From IMG/VR virus record IMGVR_UViG_3300031578_000002, positions 60,290 to 124,289 of that record: 64,000 nucleotides of DNA. One strand, 5' to 3'. Under the pieces are notes generated by a model that saw only the letters and a list, made by a program, of their open reading frames with translations, was not told the origin of the DNA and made no database searches. Below are positions 1 to 60,393 of the stretch, in pieces. The number at the start of each line of letters is the position of its first letter. The first letter of the stretch is position 1. The stretch is from a virus. Both the position numbers and the translations under genes were made by a program.

Positions 1-966
1 AGCAGTTCTTTTTGCCGCATGTAGTATGTCAATGACTGAATATCCCCACATTTCGGTTGCAGTATATTTATCAGCAGTATTACCATATTTAACCGAAGTA
101 TTACCCCTTCGATATAATTTAATTTTCTCACTAAGCGTTGTAGGTACTTCATCTAAATTCATATTTAATATTTTTGCTCGGCCTAGAATAAATTCGAAGT
201 CAAACATTTCAGAGTTAAATCCAGATATAATTGCTGGTTGAATGTGATTAATCAAGTTAAAAAAATCTTGAATTAATCTAATTTCAGCATCATCATCATC
301 GAGCTTATCTACTTCCAAAATTAGTTCAAAATCACGATTATCCCTAACGCCAATTGCAAATACTCTGGCCATCTGATATCTTAAGCCAGTTGTTTCAATA
401 TCAAAGGTTAATTTATGCACATTTTTATATTCCTCAAATCCTTTATATAATCGTGATTGTGTTGAAATAAAAAATTGTTCCGTTGTCCTTACCGAATAAA
501 ATAAATCTCTATTTGGGTAAACAATTTTACCCTTATTATCCTTAACTACGTGACCATCACTATCATATAATCTATCGTATGGGTTAATACCACCATCCTT
601 GAGATAATTAAGAATATCATTAAATGATCTACTACTAGTTATTTTAAAACAATAGCCCTCAACAAGTCTTTTTTGATTACCGGTTTTTAATTTAGTTATT
701 GTAATTCCATATTTAATTCGCTTGCTATTAACATAATTTTCAGATACATCTTCGTATAATGTCTTACCTAATTTAGATAAGTCTTTCATATACATAAATG
801 GTTCGTATTTTACATCAATAATTTTTGACTTTTCATTTGGCTCATGTATAATACATTTAGCAATATTATTACGTAGATCGGTTTCCACATTAACGACATA
901 TTTTAAATCATTATTATAACCTTCAAGAAAACCCTTGATTTCACCTAAGACTAAATGTTTATCCAT
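1..966 (-). CDS. Family B DNA polymerase, N-terminal part with 3'-5' exonuclease domain (runs off window start)
   Basis: Absent from the ORF track; translated by hand from ATG at 966 (TAATG overlap with SNF2 stop): MDKHLVLGEIKGFLEG...KLTFDIETTGL...GFNSEMFDFEFI...DILHAAKRTA. ExoI (FDIET) and ExoII (GFN...FD) motifs are present. Confidence 0.8.
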   Translation of the reverse strand, partial: MDKHLVLGEIKGFLEGYNNDLKYVVNVETDLRNNIAKCIIHEPNEKSKIIDVKYEPFMYMKDLSKLGKTLYEDVSENYVNSKRIKYGITITKLKTGNQKRLVEGYCFKITSSRSFNDILNYLKDGGINPYDRLYDSDGHVVKDNKGKIVYPNRDLFYSVRTTEQFFISTQSRLYKGFEEYKNVHKLTFDIETTGLRYQMARVFAIGVRDNRDFELILEVDKLDDDDAEIRLIQDFFNLINHIQPAIISGFNSEMFDFEFILGRAKILNMNLDEVPTTLSEKIKLYRRGNTSVKYGNTADKYTATEMWGYSVIDILHAAKRTA

Positions 967-3900
967 TATTTTTTATGTTTATTTTTTATTATTTGAATTA
1001 AGTCATTAATGATACTTTGATTAATATCTGATTCATATTTTTCACCATCAATAACTTGTGAAATTTCTGCACGTTTTGATTCAATCAAATTAAAAATATA
1101 TTCGTCAATTGTGTCTTTATATATGAAAATGTACGCATTAACTGCATTCTTCTGTCCTATCCGGGCAAGCCTATCCGTGCACTGATCTAATGTACCGGGT
1201 GTCCAAGGTATTGTTAACATTCCGACTTTACTAGCAGCAGTTAATGTCAATCCTTCTTTTGTTGTCGATTCCGATCCTAAAAATATTTTAATTTTACCAT
1301 TCTCATCCTGAAAATCTTTAAGTACATTATTCCTTTCATCATCAGATTCATCACCAGTATGTAATGCAGAAATATTTGGGTATAGTTTATGCAATTCATA
1401 TAAACTATTTTTATAAAAATCGATTGCAACAAATTTTTCACCACTTTCTAATATTGAATCAATCAATTCACTGACATTATTAACTTTCAAATATGAAGTA
1501 TATTCTCTTAATTTACCCATTATTGCTAATGGATTATGTAGTTCTTTATTAACAAATTCATTAGCAACCCCTTCTTCAAGATCATAATATACCTCATATT
1601 CTCTAGGTGTCATTTCCAATACAATTCGCTGATATGTTTTTTCTGGCAAGTCCTTTAATACTTCACTTTTTTTCTTTCGATAAATATATGGTGCAATCTT
1701 ATTAAATAATTCATCAAATTTTGTCATAGTAAAATCAGTTTCCCAACCAAATCCATCTAAATTATAATTCATTCCACAATAATATTCGTAAAAATATTTT
1801 TGTGTGGAAAAATCAATTGGTGATATTTGATTTAAAACACTATATAATTCAGCAGCTTTTGAAGGTGCTGGTGTTCCTGACATAAATACTTTTGACATAT
1901 TCTTGTTCCTGAAGATGTCCTCCTTAAATAGTTTTTTAAAATTTTTGTAGGTATTTGATTTAGTAGATTTTAATCGATGACAATTACTAACTAATATATT
2001 ATTGGCAAAATAATTATGATTATCGGCAATTTCTAAATCATATACTTTTTTATTCGATTGACCACATCTTCCAAATTCTCGTCTATTTCCTGATTCCAAA
2101 ATCTCAATACTCTCCAACCAAACATATTCAATATCTCTGTTTTTCTTTTGTCTAAAAATTTCCATAATTTTCTTTTGTGTGAATTTCCATCCACTTCTAT
2201 AGCAATTTTTAATTGAGGTATTGCAATATCTACCGAATAATGAGTTGGTGGTGAAGGTACTATTATTCCCATTTCTTTTAATGGTTTCATTATTGGTGTT
2301 GAGAATTCCATTTCCATATATGTTATTCCAGATATTGCCGAAAAGAGTTTTAATTGCTGTTTTGTTAATTGACCATTCCCACCTCTCGATAGGAAAGTAC
2401 GACCCCTTGAAGAATTTTTCATTTTCAATAAAGTTTCTTCTGAATACATTGGATTTTTTAATTTCATTCTCATTGAAAGTGCATTTGCTAATTCTGGTCT
2501 TTCCTTGTATACAATTTTTAATGAATTCGATATTTTTACATATGTTTCTTTTGAATGTACCTTTTCTTTTATTTCCACTTGATTCATTCTCCATATTGCA
2601 GAACAACTTTTTGAACAAAATTTTCGTGATAATCTTTTTTTTGCTTGAAATTCTTTCCCACAAATTGGGCATGTTATATTCAATAGGGGTGATATGTTTC
2701 CATTCAATTCTTTCGTTATTGCTATTTTCTTCGCATTTTCTTTGGCGGTATATTTTGTCGAACAAGCTTTTGAACATAAAACATGCTCTTTTCTTTTTTT
2801 CTGAAATTCCTTCTGACAGTGTAAACATTTTACTATTGGCAATGATGGAATTTTTTTCAATTCCCATCTTTTTCTCATTGAGCATGTCGTTGAGCAAAAC
2901 ATTTTTTTTGTATTTTCTTTTGTTTGAAATTCTATTCCACAACATTGACATAATCTTACGATAATTTGTGGTTTTATTCTTCCCCCTTTTGATAAAATTT
3001 TCCCCATATTTAAAATCTTTAATTGGTATATATTCATTTTTTTCGATAGAAAAAAATTTATGTTCAGGTGTACATTCAATAATTTCACCATTTGATAATT
3101 TTACTCTAATTATAGTTTTATATCCATTATATAAATACCTATTAATTGATTTTGCTTCAATTTTTTTTAGACTATGATTATAGCTCAAAATTTTAACATT
3201 TAATTTATTTTCAACAATATCCCCGATTTTAATTTTACCAACATTAGTATCTATTAATGTATCATATGTAAAACATTCGTCACTGATAAGACAATCTATT
3301 TTACCTATATTTAATTTTTCGAATTTACTTTTTACTTTATTAAAATCGGATGAATTAAAATACTCATAATTGGTAATAATATATTTAGCGTCTTCGATAC
3401 TACATGTATTTTTCTTACCAATAATATGTGCTTTAGAATATGTGAATTTCTCGACTTCATTATAATAATTAAATTTTAATGAATTGGGGGTTATAACAAA
3501 AACCTTATTAAATGGATTCATTTCACAATATGCAATGGAGATTACAGTTTTACCAGTCCCCATATCGAGTGCCAATAACGCATTTCTAACCACATTTAAG
3601 AACATAACACTTACAATCTGATGTGGATAAAGTTTTATGTTTGGTTTTAAAAATTTATGTACTTGTTCCGAATATTCCTCATATGTTTCTTCAAGTTCTT
3701 GTTTATATTTAACCCAATGTTCTTTTTTTACATTTAATTCAGCAATAAATTTACGTTTTGCCTCTTCAGCAATTTCAAGTTTTTTTATTTGTTCAATAAA
3801 TATCTTACGGCTATCTTCATTACCAAAATCGAAATGAATTTTATTTGATCCTTTATATCTTTTTATTAATAAAAATAATGAAAGCGTTGAAATTTCCCAA

Positions 3901-4049
3901 ACCATCATGCCTGCATTCCATTTACGTGTGTCTTCAGGGAGTTCTTTTATTCTTTGAGTGATTTGATCATTTATTGGAAACCTAAGATAATACCAATGTC
4001 TTTTTGATATTCTTTCACAATGTACTACGAAAATATTATTGACTTGCAT
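966..4049 (-). CDS. SNF2/SWI2-family helicase containing an intein
   Basis: LYPHQ, ALDMGTGKT (Walker A), SDE|CH after intein removal, MSGTP, KEGLTL and QCTDRLARIGQ motifs. Confidence 0.92.
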   Translation of the reverse strand: MQVNNIFVVHCERISKRHWYYLRFPINDQITQRIKELPEDTRKWNAGMMVWEISTLSLFLLIKRYKGSNKIHFDFGNEDSRKIFIEQIKKLEIAEEAKRKFIAELNVKKEHWVKYKQELEETYEEYSEQVHKFLKPNIKLYPHQIVSVMFLNVVRNALLALDMGTGKTVISIAYCEMNPFNKVFVITPNSLKFNYYNEVEKFTYSKAHIIGKKNTCSIEDAKYIITNYEYFNSSDFNKVKSKFEKLNIGKIDCLISDECFTYDTLIDTNVGKIKIGDIVENKLNVKILSYNHSLKKIEAKSINRYLYNGYKTIIRVKLSNGEIIECTPEHKFFSIEKNEYIPIKDFKYGENFIKRGKNKTTNYRKIMSMLWNRISNKRKYKKNVLLNDMLNEKKMGIEKNSIIANSKMFTLSEGISEKKKRACFMFKSLFDKIYRQRKCEENSNNERIEWKHITPIEYNMPNLWERISSKKKIITKILFKKLFCNMENESSGNKRKGTFKRNICKNIEFIKNCIQGKTRISKCTFNENEIKKSNVFRRNFIENEKFFKGSYFPIERWEWSINKTAIKTLFGNIWNNIYGNGILNTNNETIKRNGNNSTFTTNSLFGRYCNTSIKNCYRSGWKFTQKKIMEIFRQKKNRDIEYVWLESIEILESGNRREFGRCGQSNKKVYDLEIADNHNYFANNILVSNCHRLKSTKSNTYKNFKKLFKEDIFRNKNMSKVFMSGTPAPSKAAELYSVLNQISPIDFSTQKYFYEYYCGMNYNLDGFGWETDFTMTKFDELFNKIAPYIYRKKKSEVLKDLPEKTYQRIVLEMTPREYEVYYDLEEGVANEFVNKELHNPLAIMGKLREYTSYLKVNNVSELIDSILESGEKFVAIDFYKNSLYELHKLYPNISALHTGDESDDERNNVLKDFQDENGKIKIFLGSESTTKEGLTLTAASKVGMLTIPWTPGTLDQCTDRLARIGQKNAVNAYIFIYKDTIDEYIFNLIESKRAEISQVIDGEKYESDINQSIINDLIQIIKNKHKK
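1983..3275 (-). mobile_element. Intein (431 aa) in the DExH motif of the SNF2 helicase
   Basis: Starts CFTYDTLIDT, block B ECTPEHKFF, block F VYDLEIADNHNYFAN, ends ILVSN followed by Cys+1. Removal restores SDECHRLK. Confidence 0.92.
2033..3007 (-). CDS. Zn-finger repeat / NUMOD3-like / DUF559 (Vsr-like) homing endonuclease nested in the +1 frame of the intein
   Basis: Three CxxC..EF..CSxxC repeats, SEETLLKM, and YSVDIAIPQLKIAIEVDGNSH...GWRVLRFWN (PD-(D/E)XK Vsr-like). Likely start MGKILSK at 3007; the ORF is open from 3091. Confidence 0.85.
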   Translation of the reverse strand: MGKILSKGGRIKPQIIVRLCQCCGIEFQTKENTKKMFCSTTCSMRKRWELKKIPSLPIVKCLHCQKEFQKKRKEHVLCSKACSTKYTAKENAKKIAITKELNGNISPLLNITCPICGKEFQAKKRLSRKFCSKSCSAIWRMNQVEIKEKVHSKETYVKISNSLKIVYKERPELANALSMRMKLKNPMYSEETLLKMKNSSRGRTFLSRGGNGQLTKQQLKLFSAISGITYMEMEFSTPIMKPLKEMGIIVPSPPTHYSVDIAIPQLKIAIEVDGNSHKRKLWKFLDKRKTEILNMFGWRVLRFWNQEIDENLEDVVNRIKKYMI

Positions 4050-4066
4050 ATTTACATGATATTATG

Positions 4067-4096
4067 CAAATATAATCAGAATAATTAGAATGTCAA
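4067..4096 (-). promoter_or_regulatory. Bacteroidota-type sigma70 promoter for the SNF2/polymerase operon
   Basis: Minus strand reads TTGACA...TATATTTG (TTG, 19 nt, TAnnTTTG), ending 17 nt before the ATG at 4049. Confidence 0.7.
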
Positions 4097-4106
4097 CGAA
4101 AATATT

Positions 4107-4520
4107 TTAAATAACTGTTGTTTTTGTTATTGTGTCGGTAATAACGATATTAATTTGACCATCAACAGGCAATTTTATTTGACCGCATTCATCACCTAAA
4201 AAGTCAATTGCAAACTCGCCTGAGTATCGACCTGATTTAGCTGTTTGTGTTGATTTAAATTTATATGTTAACGTATATTTTTCCTCATCAGGAAATAATT
4301 CTCTGTTGGTATTAATGACTAAACTTGCAGGTACGTTAGCAATACGATATCGCCCAGTTTCCGTATTTATCATTGAGAATGTAATTGCAACATTATCAAG
4401 CATATCATCGGTAATGTCATATTGCTGTCGAACTTGTTGAAGCAATGGATATTTTAATTCGGGTAAAGTACTGTCTTTTTTTATAAAGAAATTTTTTATA
4501 TTAAATGTTGAGTAATTCAT
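4107..4520 (-). CDS. Hypothetical virion protein, BppU-like Ig-fold adaptor
   Basis: ITFSMIN...LTYKF...SGRYSGEFAIDF pattern typical of BppU-N-like domains. Confidence 0.45.
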   Translation of the reverse strand: MNYSTFNIKNFFIKKDSTLPELKYPLLQQVRQQYDITDDMLDNVAITFSMINTETGRYRIANVPASLVINTNRELFPDEEKYTLTYKFKSTQTAKSGRYSGEFAIDFLGDECGQIKLPVDGQINIVITDTITKTTVI

Positions 4521-4545
4521 TTATTTGTTGTTAATTATTCTACTG

Positions 4546-4923
4546 TTATTGCCTGTCAATTTCTGACATTAATTTTTCTCTATTGCCGCCAATTAAATTG
4601 TTCCTTTTCTTTAGTGTTGCAGCAATTCCATCGCCAATTAAACCCAATTCTAGTGAATCTATTTCCTCAAAAGAATGTCCGGTAAAACCAGTGTAAAATT
4701 TAAATAATACATATGAACATAATATTGTCGTTAAATATCTGCGCCAATTATCATGAAACCAAAAGTGCCAACTCCATTTTTTTGGCGTGTTTGTACTATT
4801 CATATCACGACCACTTGTTTCTGTTAGTCCATATATTATATATCCAATAATAAAATACCACGCATATCCAAATAATTGATTTCCAGTGTAATCTCCAAAT
4901 ATTGTTTTTATTATTTCGTTCAT
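4546..4923 (-). CDS. Small membrane protein (holin-like)
   Basis: Two to three hydrophobic segments, charged C-terminus, GTATTTAT motif 16 nt upstream. Confidence 0.45.
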   Translation of the reverse strand: MNEIIKTIFGDYTGNQLFGYAWYFIIGYIIYGLTETSGRDMNSTNTPKKWSWHFWFHDNWRRYLTTILCSYVLFKFYTGFTGHSFEEIDSLELGLIGDGIAATLKKRNNLIGGNREKLMSEIDRQ

Positions 4924-4961
4924 ATTATTACTTTTTCTATAAATACAATTTAATTTTAATT

Positions 4962-5102
4962 CTAAGTATAAAATGGAAAATTCTTATCTTTTGTTCCCAT
5001 AACGCCATTTGATTGATAATGAATATCTACTAAAATGATAAATGGCTCATTAGTACTACCAGCTGGAGCACCACTTAATAAATCAATTGTGAATGTTGCC
5101 AT
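4962..5102 (-). CDS. Small hypothetical protein (46 aa, MATFTIDLLSG...)
   Basis: Hand-translated ORF below the track cut-off, preceded by the GTATTTAT late-type motif at 5120-5127. Confidence 0.4.
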   Translation of the reverse strand: MATFTIDLLSGAPAGSTNEPFIILVDIHYQSNGVMGTKDKNFPFYT

Positions 5103-5267
5103 CGGTCATCTCTTTAATAATAAATACTGAATATTTTTGAAATCAACTAAAGTTATTTTAAATTAAAAATGAAGCAAATTTACTTTATTTTTCAATACTT
5201 TTTACAACCATCTGTTAAATATATATGTAATTATGAATTAAACAGTAATTAATAATATGTAATTATA

Positions 5268-6545
5268 TTACCAATTTATAGTCGAAACTATTGGCGATAC
5301 TGCAATCACCTCTATTCCATTATTAACAATCATTTTGCCAATATTTGGAACTGCTTTTCTTAATATGTTTAATGAACCATTTAAATCTGCATTAATTAAC
5401 CCACCAGATTTTGATTTAAATAGTCCCCGTTTCACCCTACTACCACAATATATCTCATGCTTACATATTTCTTCATTATCAATAAAACTACATTTTGATG
5501 TGTAACTCTCTTCATTAACCATTACTGTAATTCCTTCTAATTTAGCTTTATACAATAGCATTTCAATAAACCTACTATGTGGTATATTAACGAAATTTTG
5601 ATTATTCCTTTTTCCAATATTTATATCTTGCTTCCACTCCCTATTATTACCAATTATTATGGTATTAATATTGTTGAATACTAAATGATTTATAATATAT
5701 CGGCTTGATTTGTGCAAATAATCATTTATCTTATTATTTCTTTTATTGGTTAAATTATTTATTCTTTTGCTTGTCTTTAATTGTATTTTTTCTCCCCTTT
5801 TATTAGTATAATGATTTAAATCGGATTTAAATTTACCCATTTTTTTATTGTAATACTGATTAATTGATTTCAACGGTTTACCGTTTATTATGATTGGTTT
5901 TATTACATTACTTCCGATACAAGCTAGATTATTTAATCCCAAATCTATTGAGCAATATCTATTATTGTTCTCTTTTAATTTATTTTCTTGTTTCTCATAA
6001 ACAACTTCAACCACATAATGATTACCTTTAGGTATTATTCTACATTGTTTTAACGTATTAATATTTACGTTAGTTTTAATTTTTATGTTTGTTTTAGATA
6101 GTTTAATTATATTATTTTTTATTTCTGTTTTAGATATGCTACCTAATTCATATATTACTGGATATCTGCCATTTTTATCTTTATATGATGGCAAACTAGG
6201 TTTACCCCTATATTTAGACTTATTTCTTGAGTAATCCTTAATTGTAGCAAAAAATGATTTCCAATTTTTATCTAATGACATTAGTGTTTGATTCGATACT
6301 TTTCTTGGTAATCGAACATAATCACAATCATTTGTATTAATCATTAATTTATTAATATCATAATAATTAAAATAATTAGCATGTTCAATTAAACCCAATT
6401 GTTTATCTCCGCTTGATTTAATAAATTCTTGTCTTACAATATAATTAGCCCTATTATATAAATTTTTTGATAAAAAACATAATTTATCCATTTCACAATA
6501 AAATGGATTTGATTTTTTAATAATATGTTTTTCAGTTAAAATCAT
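5268..6545 (-). CDS. tnpB: IS607-type TnpB RNA-guided nuclease (rearranged RuvC-II)
   Basis: SIDLGLNNLA (RuvC-I), IIIGNNREWKQ with Gly at the canonical Glu position, NEESYTSK, INADLNGSLNI (RuvC-III). Confidence 0.9.
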   Translation of the reverse strand: MILTEKHIIKKSNPFYCEMDKLCFLSKNLYNRANYIVRQEFIKSSGDKQLGLIEHANYFNYYDINKLMINTNDCDYVRLPRKVSNQTLMSLDKNWKSFFATIKDYSRNKSKYRGKPSLPSYKDKNGRYPVIYELGSISKTEIKNNIIKLSKTNIKIKTNVNINTLKQCRIIPKGNHYVVEVVYEKQENKLKENNNRYCSIDLGLNNLACIGSNVIKPIIINGKPLKSINQYYNKKMGKFKSDLNHYTNKRGEKIQLKTSKRINNLTNKRNNKINDYLHKSSRYIINHLVFNNINTIIIGNNREWKQDINIGKRNNQNFVNIPHSRFIEMLLYKAKLEGITVMVNEESYTSKCSFIDNEEICKHEIYCGSRVKRGLFKSKSGGLINADLNGSLNILRKAVPNIGKMIVNNGIEVIAVSPIVSTINW

Positions 6546-6547
6546 GG

Positions 6548-7126
6548 TTATGATTCAATAAATTTAATAATTTCTTCTTTATTTTTCTTTTTTCTTAAGC
6601 CATACATTCTAGCAGAAAATGAATAGAATATTGAAATCATATCGTTTAATAAATCTTGTTTATCAACATCAACATGATTTATAATAACAATTTTTTTACC
6701 TTTTAGACTTAAAAATAATGATATATAATTAAAACCAAATCTAGTTAATCTATCTTTATTTTCAATAATTATAATATCCCAATCATTTCTAATTAACAAT
6801 TTATTTAATTTAGGTCTATTATCATTCATACCCGAAGCAATTTCTTTAATTTCATCAATAACCACATAGCCATTATTGATTGCAAAATTTCTAATTCTGT
6901 TAAGTTGATAATCTAATTCTTTTTTTCTATCATTATTAGATACTCTTGCATAGAGTATAGCATTAGTTTGATTATTAACTTCAGGAAATAATGGAATTTT
7001 AACATGATTAGTTTCATCTAAAAAAGCGTTTTTTATTTTACCTGCATTGAATCTATTCCATGCCGTTTTATACGTAACTGAATTTTCTTTAGCATATTCA
7101 GATAATTTTTTATAAATTTGTTGCAT
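6548..7126 (-). CDS. tnpA: IS607 TnpA serine recombinase (MerR-like HTH + resolvase)
   Basis: KLSEYAKENSVTYKTAWNRF HTH; ILYARVSNN, EIASGMNDNRPKL, IENKDRLTRFGF. Confidence 0.93.
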   Translation of the reverse strand: MQQIYKKLSEYAKENSVTYKTAWNRFNAGKIKNAFLDETNHVKIPLFPEVNNQTNAILYARVSNNDRKKELDYQLNRIRNFAINNGYVVIDEIKEIASGMNDNRPKLNKLLIRNDWDIIIIENKDRLTRFGFNYISLFLSLKGKKIVIINHVDVDKQDLLNDMISIFYSFSARMYGLRKKKNKEEIIKFIES

Positions 7127-7325
7127 ATGACAATTACAATTAAAGTAATAAATACTATCAATATGGAAAAAGTTTCAATATAATGGAATAAATTTACATA
7201 ATATTTATAACTTGTAATTAACACCTTATTCAACATTTGTAATTAATTATAATTAATAGTGTTTTCCAACCATACTTCCAGCCATTTTTACGATTCCAGA
7301 TGATAATCTTATTATTGACATAATT

Positions 7326-8660
7326 TTAAGGAATTGGAAATTGTTTTATCGTTCCATCAAACTGCCCCCGCATTGGTGGTTCAAATACTTTGTTACCTAC
7401 TGCGTAGCCTGTGGGGTCGATTATTGAATCGCCTACTGCTAACAATGGTTCATCAAATAATCCTGCGAAGGTTCCTCCTATAATAGCCATTAAAGGAGTT
7501 GAATAATCGATGCTTTCAACTTTTATGGCTTGTGTTTGACCGTTAATTAGTAAAAATAGTGTCCCAGAAATTCTAATAAAGCAATAATATTTATATCCAG
7601 TAAGCGTCTGAGAGGCATACGTTTTGATTAAATTTGTTTCAAAATAGTCGTTTGTAGAATCCTTACCTATTTTTATATCCGTTCCAAATCGCAAAATAAC
7701 TGCATCAGCTGTTGGATTAGCCCAAAATCCTATAAAAAAATCAGATATTCCAAATGAGTAAGTATTTGTACTTTGCAATACCTGACCACCAGCAAATAGT
7801 AGCCCTGTTTTAGTCCATTTGGGTTTATTTGTTGAATATGTAAAAACATCAGTGCCTATACTACACTTAATACTTGTAATATTATCGTTCACATCAATAA
7901 TCACTCCGTCCAAAAATTTACTGCTTAAAAAGAACTCTTTTAAACCGTCTGCTTTGTAACGTTTAAAGTGTGTGAATTTTTCTTTATATAACTTTGGAAT
8001 GTCATTTTTTAAAATTCTGAAACTACTATCAATTGAATGAATTTGGAAGTTATCCATTATTGCCTCGCCGTAGCTGTTGAAGCCATCCCACCCAAAAATC
8101 TGTAAGTTATTTGTGATTCTTATTTTATTAGAATCAGTTGAAAAAATATAATACTGCACCACTCCATCTATGGCGGCAAAATAATTTGCACTATAAATAA
8201 TACCATCAACAGACGTATAAGGTAATTTTCCGAGCATGACTTTAATTGGCACATCAAGTCTATCAATAACTCCTGAACTAAATGAGAATATATGTGAAAA
8301 TGTACCCAAATTAAATTCAAGTGTGGTTCCATACCGTAACCCAAGATAACCATAAACCGTATCTCGAAAAAACATAAGATACCTGTTGCCGTAATCGATT
8401 GATTTAAACTCAATTTGGAATTGCAATATAAAAAACTCCAGCTGTTGATCGTATGCTCCGCTTGCCCAAACTAAAGGTTTTTCTCCGTCAAATCGGACCC
8501 CCTTACCATATTCAAACGTAGGCTGCTTATTAACGTCAGTCTGAACAAAAGCAATATTCTGAGCTTTGTCAGTTATTTGACTGACCTTATTTGTCGAATC
8601 TTTAAAGATTCTATTAGGTAGTTGCATGTCAATATCTATATGAAGTAGTATCTTGCTCAT
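7326..8660 (-). CDS. Putative receptor-binding/tail appendage protein with LamG-like beta-sandwich domains
   Basis: Two beta-rich repeats (FFIGFWANP, FLLINGQ, FAGLFDEP) ending in VFEPP, similar to the end of the upstream gene (VFTPP). Confidence 0.5.
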   Translation of the reverse strand: MSKILLHIDIDMQLPNRIFKDSTNKVSQITDKAQNIAFVQTDVNKQPTFEYGKGVRFDGEKPLVWASGAYDQQLEFFILQFQIEFKSIDYGNRYLMFFRDTVYGYLGLRYGTTLEFNLGTFSHIFSFSSGVIDRLDVPIKVMLGKLPYTSVDGIIYSANYFAAIDGVVQYYIFSTDSNKIRITNNLQIFGWDGFNSYGEAIMDNFQIHSIDSSFRILKNDIPKLYKEKFTHFKRYKADGLKEFFLSSKFLDGVIIDVNDNITSIKCSIGTDVFTYSTNKPKWTKTGLLFAGGQVLQSTNTYSFGISDFFIGFWANPTADAVILRFGTDIKIGKDSTNDYFETNLIKTYASQTLTGYKYYCFIRISGTLFLLINGQTQAIKVESIDYSTPLMAIIGGTFAGLFDEPLLAVGDSIIDPTGYAVGNKVFEPPMRGQFDGTIKQFPIP

Positions 8661-59991: not shown

Positions 59992-60393
59992 ATGAGGCCA
60001 CAACGAAAAGAATTAAAATTTGATGAAAAGAGTGTAAATAACCTTTTACAGGAAATTTATAATGAATCTCATAACATAAAAGCAAAAATTACCAGACTTT
60101 TTACAAAATGGGAATTGAAAATTAAAGAGACTGGTGAAATTGCCGCAATTGGTGATCAAATTGTAAAATTAATTGCTGCTGAGGCAAAAAACCAAGATCA
60201 AAAAATAATGCTGTTAAAATATCTAAAAGAAGTCGTTTTTGATATAAAAAATGGTAATACAAATAATGATTCTGGTGGTAATACTCAAAAAAAAGACGAA
60301 AAGGAATCTGTGATAACATCAGATAGAAGAAACGAATTACTTAATTTTGTTGCAGAAGAAATCGAGAGAAAAGAAAAGGAAAGGAATAAATAA
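59992..60393 (+). CDS. Hypothetical helical protein
   Basis: 133-aa ORF with CTATTTAT upstream at 59967-59974. Confidence 0.7.
   Translation: MRPQRKELKFDEKSVNNLLQEIYNESHNIKAKITRLFTKWELKIKETGEIAAIGDQIVKLIAAEAKNQDQKIMLLKYLKEVVFDIKNGNTNNDSGGNTQKKDEKESVITSDRRNELLNFVAEEIERKEKERNK

Follow-up and report, generated by a model that had tools for sequence, protein, structure and literature searches.

An intein that encodes its homing endonuclease in another reading frame was first noted by Gorbalenya (1998) in dnaX, and the cyanobacterial dnaX intein is now described as containing a "+2 ORF" (open reading frame, ORF) for a LAGLIDADG homing endonuclease (HEN; Phillips, DeSimone and Gogarten, bioRxiv 10.64898/2026.09.14.751524). 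In actinobacteriophages, inteins with antisense LAGLIDADG, antisense VSR-like or sense "frame 3" EndoVII-like HENs were found in polymerase, capsid, terminase and thymidylate synthase genes, and the authors stated that the only other known association of VSR-like HENs was with split inteins (Gosselin, Arsenault and Gogarten, bioRxiv 10.1101/2025.01.02.630785). In the latter arrangement, termed fractured genes, free-standing Vsr-like or GIY-YIG HENs lie between split-intein halves, and the HEN overlaps the C-intein ORF by 6–69 bp (Dassa et al., 2009, PMC2677866). Here, a 64,000-nucleotide (nt) stretch of DNA (hereafter, the window; positions 60,290–124,289 of the IMG/VR virus record IMGVR_UViG_3300031578_000002) was analyzed, and it very probably contains a mobile intein of a soil jumbo phage that is inserted in the Walker-B (DExH) motif of an SNF2-family helicase and carries, overprinted in its middle at frame +1, a separate HEN gene.

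The locus shares with the actinophage inteins a contiguous intein, an open extein frame and a HEN located in another frame between the splicing blocks, but its HEN is a sense-strand, +1, Vsr-like/DUF559 protein with zinc-ribbon modules, and it occurs in uncultured AT-rich to GC-rich phages, mainly at SNF2/DEAD Walker-B sites. Overlapping ORFs, purifying selection in the HEN frame, a relaxed extein frame in the overlap, mini-intein alleles and a sporadic distribution are shared with the cyanobacterial DnaX intein, which has a LAGLIDADG HEN and a cellular host, whereas a related intein found here in a phage clamp-loader (DnaX-like) gene (locus L102) has a Vsr-like HEN. Fractured genes resemble it in the Vsr-like/EDxHD superfamily, the phage hosts, the replication-enzyme targets, including helicase and terminase, and the overlap of the HEN 3′ end with the C-terminal intein coding region; however, their host frame is interrupted and trans-splicing is required, whereas the present frame is continuous and maintained by selection (PMC2677866). 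The prototype EDxHD homing endonuclease, the group I intron-encoded I-Bth0305I (Taylor et al., 2011, PMC3239194), has in common with the present HEN a Vsr-like catalytic fold (Foldseek probability 1.0, TM-score 0.62–0.73) and a modular N-terminal DNA-binding region, but the present HEN is closer in sequence to DUF559 (3HRL) and has three Cys4 modules. Finally, the out-of-frame HNH of ShiLan, in a phage methylase insertion (Arsenault et al., 2025, PMC11855218), is likewise concealed: the host frame runs through the insertion without a stop, and the endonuclease is read in a different frame; that insertion has no splicing domain and stays in the host protein, whereas the present overlap is flanked by a complete Hint domain. 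The case had been taken as new in the original prediction, which was made from the sequence of the window alone, but the overprinting principle was already published (Gorbalenya, 1998; bioRxiv 10.1101/2025.01.02.630785; bioRxiv 10.64898/2026.09.14.751524); what appears to be absent from the literature searched is a sense-strand +1 Vsr-like/DUF559 HEN and its wide occurrence at Walker-B motifs.

The intein and the endonuclease gene within it

The host gene, which matches SNF2-rel_dom (4e-16), Helicase_C (2e-9) and ResIII (5e-7) in Pfam and PHROG 62 (DNA helicase; 2e-77), is one ORF of 1027 codons and not the two ORFs of a fractured gene, in which a stop follows the N-intein and a new start precedes the C-intein. 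The intein begins with a Cys1 codon (3275–3273) and ends with the Asn431 codon (1985–1983), after which Cys+1 follows, and the coordinates originally predicted for the intein and the +1 ORF were all correct (Table 1). Pfam Intein_splicing is matched at 7.6e-12 over helicase-ORF residues 271–689. Among 22 aligned intein homologues, Cys1, T69, H72 and N431 are invariant, with a block B of T-P-E-H that fits T-x-x-H, and position +1 is occupied by Cys in the window and by either Cys or Ser in the relatives. The intein end reads V-S-N↓C (arrow, junction) throughout the AT-rich clade (1983–1988 of the window, minus strand) and V-H-N↓C/S in the GC-richer clade.

In the AlphaFold2 (AF2) model of the host frame, the pLDDT (predicted local distance difference test) score is 81–93 at intein residues 1–100, falls to 26–61 at residues 101–380 and returns to 84–93 at strands 382–392 and 409–430, and the confident parts match the Ssp and Npu DnaE and the RecA mini-inteins (Foldseek probability 1.0). 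The Hint-fold matches include 1ZD7, 4KL5 and 2IN0, with an E-value of 2e-7, a probability of 1.0 and a root-mean-square deviation of 1.5–2.0 Å. These results, together with the selection analysis below, show that the ends of the intein form a Hint fold and that the endonuclease frame gives rise incidentally to the ~278 residues in between, which are constrained only against stops. A motif-less middle of ~320 residues had been proposed; since host-frame confidence is confined to the ends of the intein, the featureless character stands, but the length is ~278 residues (101–378), the last ~50 overlapped codons being C-terminal Hint.

The +1 ORF extends from an ATG at 3007 to a TAG at 2035–2033, and the stop lies 50 nt before the intein end within V-Y-D-L-E of host block F, the block in which it had been placed from the sequence. 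The encoded protein matches Pfam PF04480 (DUF559) at 3.2e-15 with 56.4 bits, the cut-off being 20.6, and its profile matches 3HRL at 1e-13 and I-Bth0305I (3R3P) at 3e-4. The top Foldseek matches of the predicted fold (mean pLDDT 90.8) are 3R3P, 3HRL (DUF559) and 1VSR (E. coli Vsr), all with probability 1.0 and target TM-scores of 0.53–0.77. D260, E271, D273, H277 and K289 do not vary across 31 aligned sequences and D286 hardly does; possible counterparts of the Vsr residues D51, H69 and D97 are among them. The finger region matches YacG (E 0.0012), HNH_5 (E 0.016) and FCS-type fingers weakly, and relatives carry PF06467. HNH_5 and YacG were rejected as family assignments, being weak zinc-ribbon echoes only, as was the PHROG name "HNH endonuclease" for this region, which no HNH motif supports. 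From the label Zn-finger/NUMOD3/Vsr-like in the original prediction, the zinc finger and the Vsr-like nuclease are retained; NUMOD3 gave no Pfam match at E ≤ 0.1, and the helical S-x-E-T...K-I-S-like repeats are a visual resemblance only. With the DUF559 match, the confident fold and the substitution asymmetry described below, the +1 ORF is shown to encode a real protein of endonuclease type, folded and under purifying selection, which consists of three zinc-ribbon modules, helical linkers and a Vsr-like/DUF559 nuclease. Its invariant segment G-W-x-V-L-R-F-W-N-x-E doubles as the Hint strand V-x-x-E-S-I-E-I-L-E, and over the last ~36 HEN codons (2033–2141) the host frame specifies the initial strands of the C-terminal Hint lobe; according to the models of both products, these codons are functional in both frames.

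Table 1. Positions of the helicase, intein and endonuclease features in the window.
Feature	Position	Strand	Basis or remark
SNF2-family helicase gene, host (extein) gene	966–4049	–	1027 codons, single ORF; Pfam and PHROG matches
Class-1-type Hint intein, 431 codons	1983–3275	–	Inserted in helicase motif II (Walker B) at the D-E / C-H-R junction
N-terminal Hint lobe, intein residues 1–100, blocks A and B	2976–3275	–	AF2 pLDDT 81–93
Host-frame linker, intein residues 101–378	2142–2975	–	pLDDT 26–61; mostly nonsynonymous substitutions; no stops vs. 12–30 expected
C-terminal Hint lobe, intein residues 379–431, blocks F and G, strand V-W-L-E-S-I-E-I-L-E-S, end S-N	1983–2141	–	Strand pLDDT 84–93; retained in L004
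Cys+1 codon, first C-extein residue (C-H-R-L-K, motif II)	1980–1982	–	ORF translation; site of intein-free relatives
HEN gene, +1 frame, 324 codons and TAG	2033–3007	–	Conserved ATG; AF2 mean pLDDT 90.8; purifying selection
Predicted HEN DNA-binding region, three CxxC...(F/L)CSxxCS zinc-ribbon modules	2600–2950	–	Invariant Cys columns; weak finger matches
Predicted HEN catalytic domain, Vsr-like/DUF559	2045–2245	–	Pfam, profile, Foldseek
Dual-functional stretch, HEN C-terminus G-W-R-V-L-R-F-W-N-Q-E... over first C-terminal Hint strands	2033–2141	–	Both frames confidently folded and highly conserved

Selection on the two reading frames

A host-frame stop arises wherever a T-ending HEN codon precedes a codon starting with AA, AG or GA. 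The 72 T-ending codons of the HEN ORF precede none of its 107 codons starting with AA, AG or GA, as against 72 of the other 217 (Fisher, 3.1e-15). When synonymous codons were permuted within the HEN ORF, a mean of 12.2 host-frame stops arose (minimum, 4; 3000 trials), and when the codons were redrawn from window usage, the mean was 29.9 (minimum, 14), whereas none is present over the 324 codons. T occupies 22% of HEN third positions vs. 43% in long ORFs of the window, and the remaining sense frame over the HEN contains 39 stops. Here the open off-frame run covers 351–355 codons; when 29 long ORFs of the window were examined, the next longest measured 100 codons. A local AT-skew trough at ~2250–3000 reflects the A excess of the coding strand. 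The claim that an off-frame run of this length is improbable without selection is thus upheld, with 12–30 stops expected from codon permutation and redrawing and none observed.

The same pattern is found in relatives. A search of IMG/VR with the HEN protein found L001–L003, and a HEN profile search yielded 64 loci, of which ~56 are distinct embedded ones. In all 56 distinct embedded homologues, host-frame stops number zero vs. 1.8–18 expected, and the three loci L001–L003, whose HENs are 50–56% identical to that of the window, each show stop avoidance of their own (p from 2e-12 to 6e-14). In contrast, the free-standing relatives L058, L068, L101 and L103 contain 13, 27, 39 and 33 stops vs. 17, 29, 33 and 33 expected. 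These observations confirm that selection keeps the host frame free of stops, both in the window and in all embedded homologues, and the reading of the intein as a contiguous element of 431 codons stands with it. Free-standing L058 was considered as an "escaped" embedded HEN, since its matched core has 5 stops vs. 11.4 expected (p 0.004), but its whole ORF has 13 vs. 17.2 (p 0.08), and the idea was dropped.

The constraint on each frame was compared by means of isolated single-base differences in 12 disjoint pairs of embedded homologues, stricter identity limits having left one pair. Of these differences, 298 leave the HEN residue unaltered and change that of the host frame, and 26 do the converse, although the two classes are equally available, with 20% and 20.5% of the possible stop-free changes (odds ratio 11.7, p 4e-59). 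Variability is greatest at third codon positions of the HEN (0.39–0.45 vs. 0.23–0.30), and amino-acid identity is 56–63% in the HEN frame vs. 40–46% in the host frame. The two-frame comparison across homologues foreseen in the original prediction therefore finds the HEN frame constrained, and it supports a host-frame middle that has neither amino-acid constraint nor a confident fold. The locus thus offers ~0.9 kb of statistically clean same-strand dual coding, in which one frame encodes a real enzyme and the other need only be stop-free, because the junk that it encodes would be removed by protein splicing. If the splicing is real, these inteins accommodate an unstructured insert of ~280 residues, which may interest intein engineers.

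Insertion sites, mobility and decay

In L001–L003, the SNF2 frame is open through a homologous intein and the HEN lies at +1. In 62 of the 64 HEN-profile loci, no stop interrupts the –1 frame (relative to the HEN) anywhere along the HEN, and the ORFs concerned measure 328–2091 amino acids, some of them ended by a contig edge, and most embedded loci tested carry Hint together with helicase, terminase or methylase domains. The insertion sites are located in or adjoining the "DE" of the Walker-B motif at nearly all mappable loci: D-E↓[C/S]-[H/S/Q]-x-x-K in SNF2/DEAD helicases and helicase-methylase fusions, with the offset variants D-E-x-H-R↓C-K-D and D-E-S-H↓S-V-K, D-E-A-[T/S]-R↓C-K-E in terminase large subunits and V-I-D-E↓C-H-A-L in the clamp-loader gene of L102. 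The HEN is at +1 relative to the host frame in every embedded locus, which would be expected of a single intein-HEN unit that spread while tolerating only indels of a multiple of three. At nearly all mapped loci, the HEN stop falls within the intein, 8–56 nt from the 3′ end. The intein of the window is a member of a sizeable, largely unannotated family and not an isolated oddity.

This family causes systematic mis-annotation: gene callers choose either the host ORF or the HEN ORF, and the HEN is unannotated in the phage contigs studied here. In two metagenome loci, L102 (2235–4484, clamp-loader-like AAA+) and L099 (215–2725, SNF2), it is the HEN ORF that is annotated and the host gene that is missed or truncated. 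Five SNF2 loci carry, besides the motif-II intein, a second, canonical in-frame intein of LAGLIDADG type in the P-loop (G-K-S/A↓...), namely L001 (1987–6093), L002 (1990–5988), L005, L006 and L010, and in L004 a further in-frame intein lies near the C-terminal R-I-G-Q motif.

The 26 closest C-extein relatives in IMG/VR (56–88% identity) are all intein-free, and their sites read D-E-S-H-H/R, D-E-C-H-R/K or D-E-C-Q-K. In the C-extein tree, the window falls in a clade of 15 rows (SH-aLRT 95) as the sole intein bearer among 14 intein-free sequences, and the intein-bearing L005–L011 form a separate clade. Distant helicases of the L005–L011 type nevertheless have N-terminal Hint lobes that are 64–73% identical to that of the window, and the distribution of the intein in this tree, to which intein-bearing and intein-free sequences were contributed by different searches, is inconsistent with vertical descent. 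Because the closest helicase relatives are intein-free while distant helicases share a related intein, the intein was most likely gained horizontally, to judge from these sequences. The donor lineage is unsampled and the gain is not datable, since the nearest intein relatives are only 64–73% identical in that lobe.

Decayed alleles were also found. In L004, this intein occurs at an identical site, a deletion has removed the HEN core and the ATG has become ACG; the host frame and both Hint lobes are kept, and the deletion ends at the exact start of the C-terminal Hint strand. L067 is a similar HEN remnant. L098 (P0070) was considered as an in-frame fusion of the N-terminal Hint lobe and the HEN and was rejected: it is a single 2-kb low-coverage metagenome contig (204–1921), in which an indel merges the frames and joins the host-frame linker to the C-terminal half of the HEN, so that helicase and HEN are both broken. 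L004, L067 and L098 are the decay products expected of a homing element. In L012 (1400–4384), the host ORF stops just past the HEN stop and no C-terminal Hint was found; it may be an L001/L008-type allele that was truncated or frameshifted.

Expression, alternative explanations and phage context

The preferred reading involves the following steps. Ribosomes starting at the helicase ATG can read the 1027 codons without a stop, the host frame staying open because T-ending HEN codons are never tolerated before AA-, AG- or GA-starting codons; the precursor would splice in cis, and the linker would be discarded along with the intein. Selection for an open helicase frame points to such protein splicing. 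The HEN would be translated from its own ATG at 3007, probably at a low level because host-frame ribosomes cross its start site, and during co-infection it would cut intein-free DE↓(C/S)H alleles, the repair of which would copy the intein in. The HEN ATG lies within the host codons for Y-G and is conserved in the window and L001–L003; in L002, a +1-frame stop is located five codons upstream of it, and across the family an ATG precedes the first zinc finger in 50 of 57 loci. No Shine-Dalgarno motif was found before this ATG, and its A/T-rich leader resembles those of almost all genes of the phage. Given these observations, independent internal initiation at the HEN ATG would be the most economical model.

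Several points weigh against this reading. We infer that the precursor splices, that the +1 ORF is translated and that its product cleaves DNA; internal initiation within a translated ORF is assumed, and the sequence was found in none of the RNA runs searched. Because separate searches supplied the intein-bearing and the intein-free sequences, the sample in the tree is biased, and even the nearest intein relatives are only 64–73% identical in the N-terminal lobe. Moreover, the penultimate residue of the intein, canonically His, is Ser in the window and in the AT-rich clade. A penultimate His is common in inteins but not obligatory, and since Ser is conserved at this position in the AT-rich clade, its inteins are presumably competent.

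Among the alternatives, the one that deserves most attention, improbable as we consider it, is that the HEN ORF of this phage is a silent relic, with the host frame alone in use and a large mini-intein on its way to deletion. HEN expression in this phage does rest on inference, its sequence being in no RNA run searched, and decay occurs in the family (L004, L067, L054, L066 and L098). However, the HEN of the window is intact, retains the conserved ATG and has all the residues that are invariant across the 31 aligned sequences; purifying selection is strong family-wide, and the intein-free state of the closest relatives argues for gain over long residence. It is less probable still that the HEN is produced by a programmed +1 ribosomal frameshift as a fusion of N-extein, N-terminal Hint lobe and HEN. 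The missing Shine-Dalgarno motif and the 28 stop-free +1 codons that lie upstream of this ATG in the window would fit such a fusion, but that motif is absent from nearly all genes of the phage, the upstream frame is closed in homologues by the L002 stop and by L001 stops farther upstream, an ATG precedes the first finger in the great majority of loci as stated above, and no conserved slippery site was seen in a comparison of the window with L001–L003.

A true fractured gene, with N- and C-halves made separately and trans-spliced and an open host frame that is incidental, fits the HEN family and the 3′ overlap geometry (8–56 nt here, 6–69 bp reported). In addition, the invariant K-W-K codons of the HEN supply a host-frame ATG in 11 of the 22 inteins aligned, ~56 codons ahead of the intein end. 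Nonetheless, we regard this arrangement as very improbable: an incidental open frame is statistically excluded in every embedded member, free-standing relatives are full of stops, and the contiguous precursor matters because read-through is selected. An assembly or sequencing frameshift that has displaced a HEN really in frame with the intein is the least credible explanation, with hardly any probability left to it. No support for it was found, although the frames are merged in one low-coverage relative, L098; it requires two compensating errors and leaves the stop-free host frame unexplained. Contigs from a second soil sample of another study (X2) match 1931–2334, 2503–2795 and 2782–3362 of the window with 0 differences and 0 indels, and the layout is common to ~56 independent contigs and present in 62 of 64 loci, so that indels merging the frames, named beforehand as a result that would overturn the claim, did not appear.

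In the sequencing runs X1 and X2, from both soil samples, a contig ~6–18 times deeper matches only the conserved ends of the intein (window 1978–2054 and 2999–3034), with 821 letters between the matched ends vs. 944 in the window. A more abundant relative with a related intein but a different middle thus seems to coexist in both samples.

The "intermediate" architecture that had been proposed holds as a description, since the locus is positioned between in-frame inteins and fractured genes; an evolutionary step is not established. We consider it possible but rather unlikely that the overprinted layout is both the standing design of a large Walker-B-homing intein clade and the form from which natural split inteins directly arose. 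A third-position change from A or G to T before an AA, AG or GA codon, synonymous in the HEN, would place a stop in the host frame, and with the host-frame ATG derived from K-W-K, one mutation could yield a fractured gene rescued by trans-splicing. The layout may have originated in GC-rich phages, where only 4–8 stops had to be avoided, and spread later to AT-rich genomes under continuing selection. A contiguous form with the same nuclease superfamily and 3′ overlap now stands beside the fractured genes of Dassa et al., so that natural sequences allow tests of the model that connects free-standing endonucleases with split and canonical inteins.

The source record is a 140.8-kb virus record of soil origin with a CheckV-estimated completeness of 46%, and the host is probably a jumbo phage because relatives are located on 326–365-kb contigs. 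A Shine-Dalgarno-like motif is present at only 3 of the 48 long ORFs in the window, and A/T-rich leaders precede the starts, which suggests a host with Shine-Dalgarno-independent initiation, perhaps Bacteroidota-like. An IS607-type pair (5268–7126, minus strand), consisting of a serine recombinase (6548–7126) and TnpB (5268–6545), is located 1.2 kb upstream of the helicase gene. In a nucleotide search of 50,697 GenBank phages with positions 1–8000 of the window, the intein was unmatched and the TnpB/recombinase element alone was matched; the phages concerned are Bacillus phage G, Lak phages and Staphylococcus phages.

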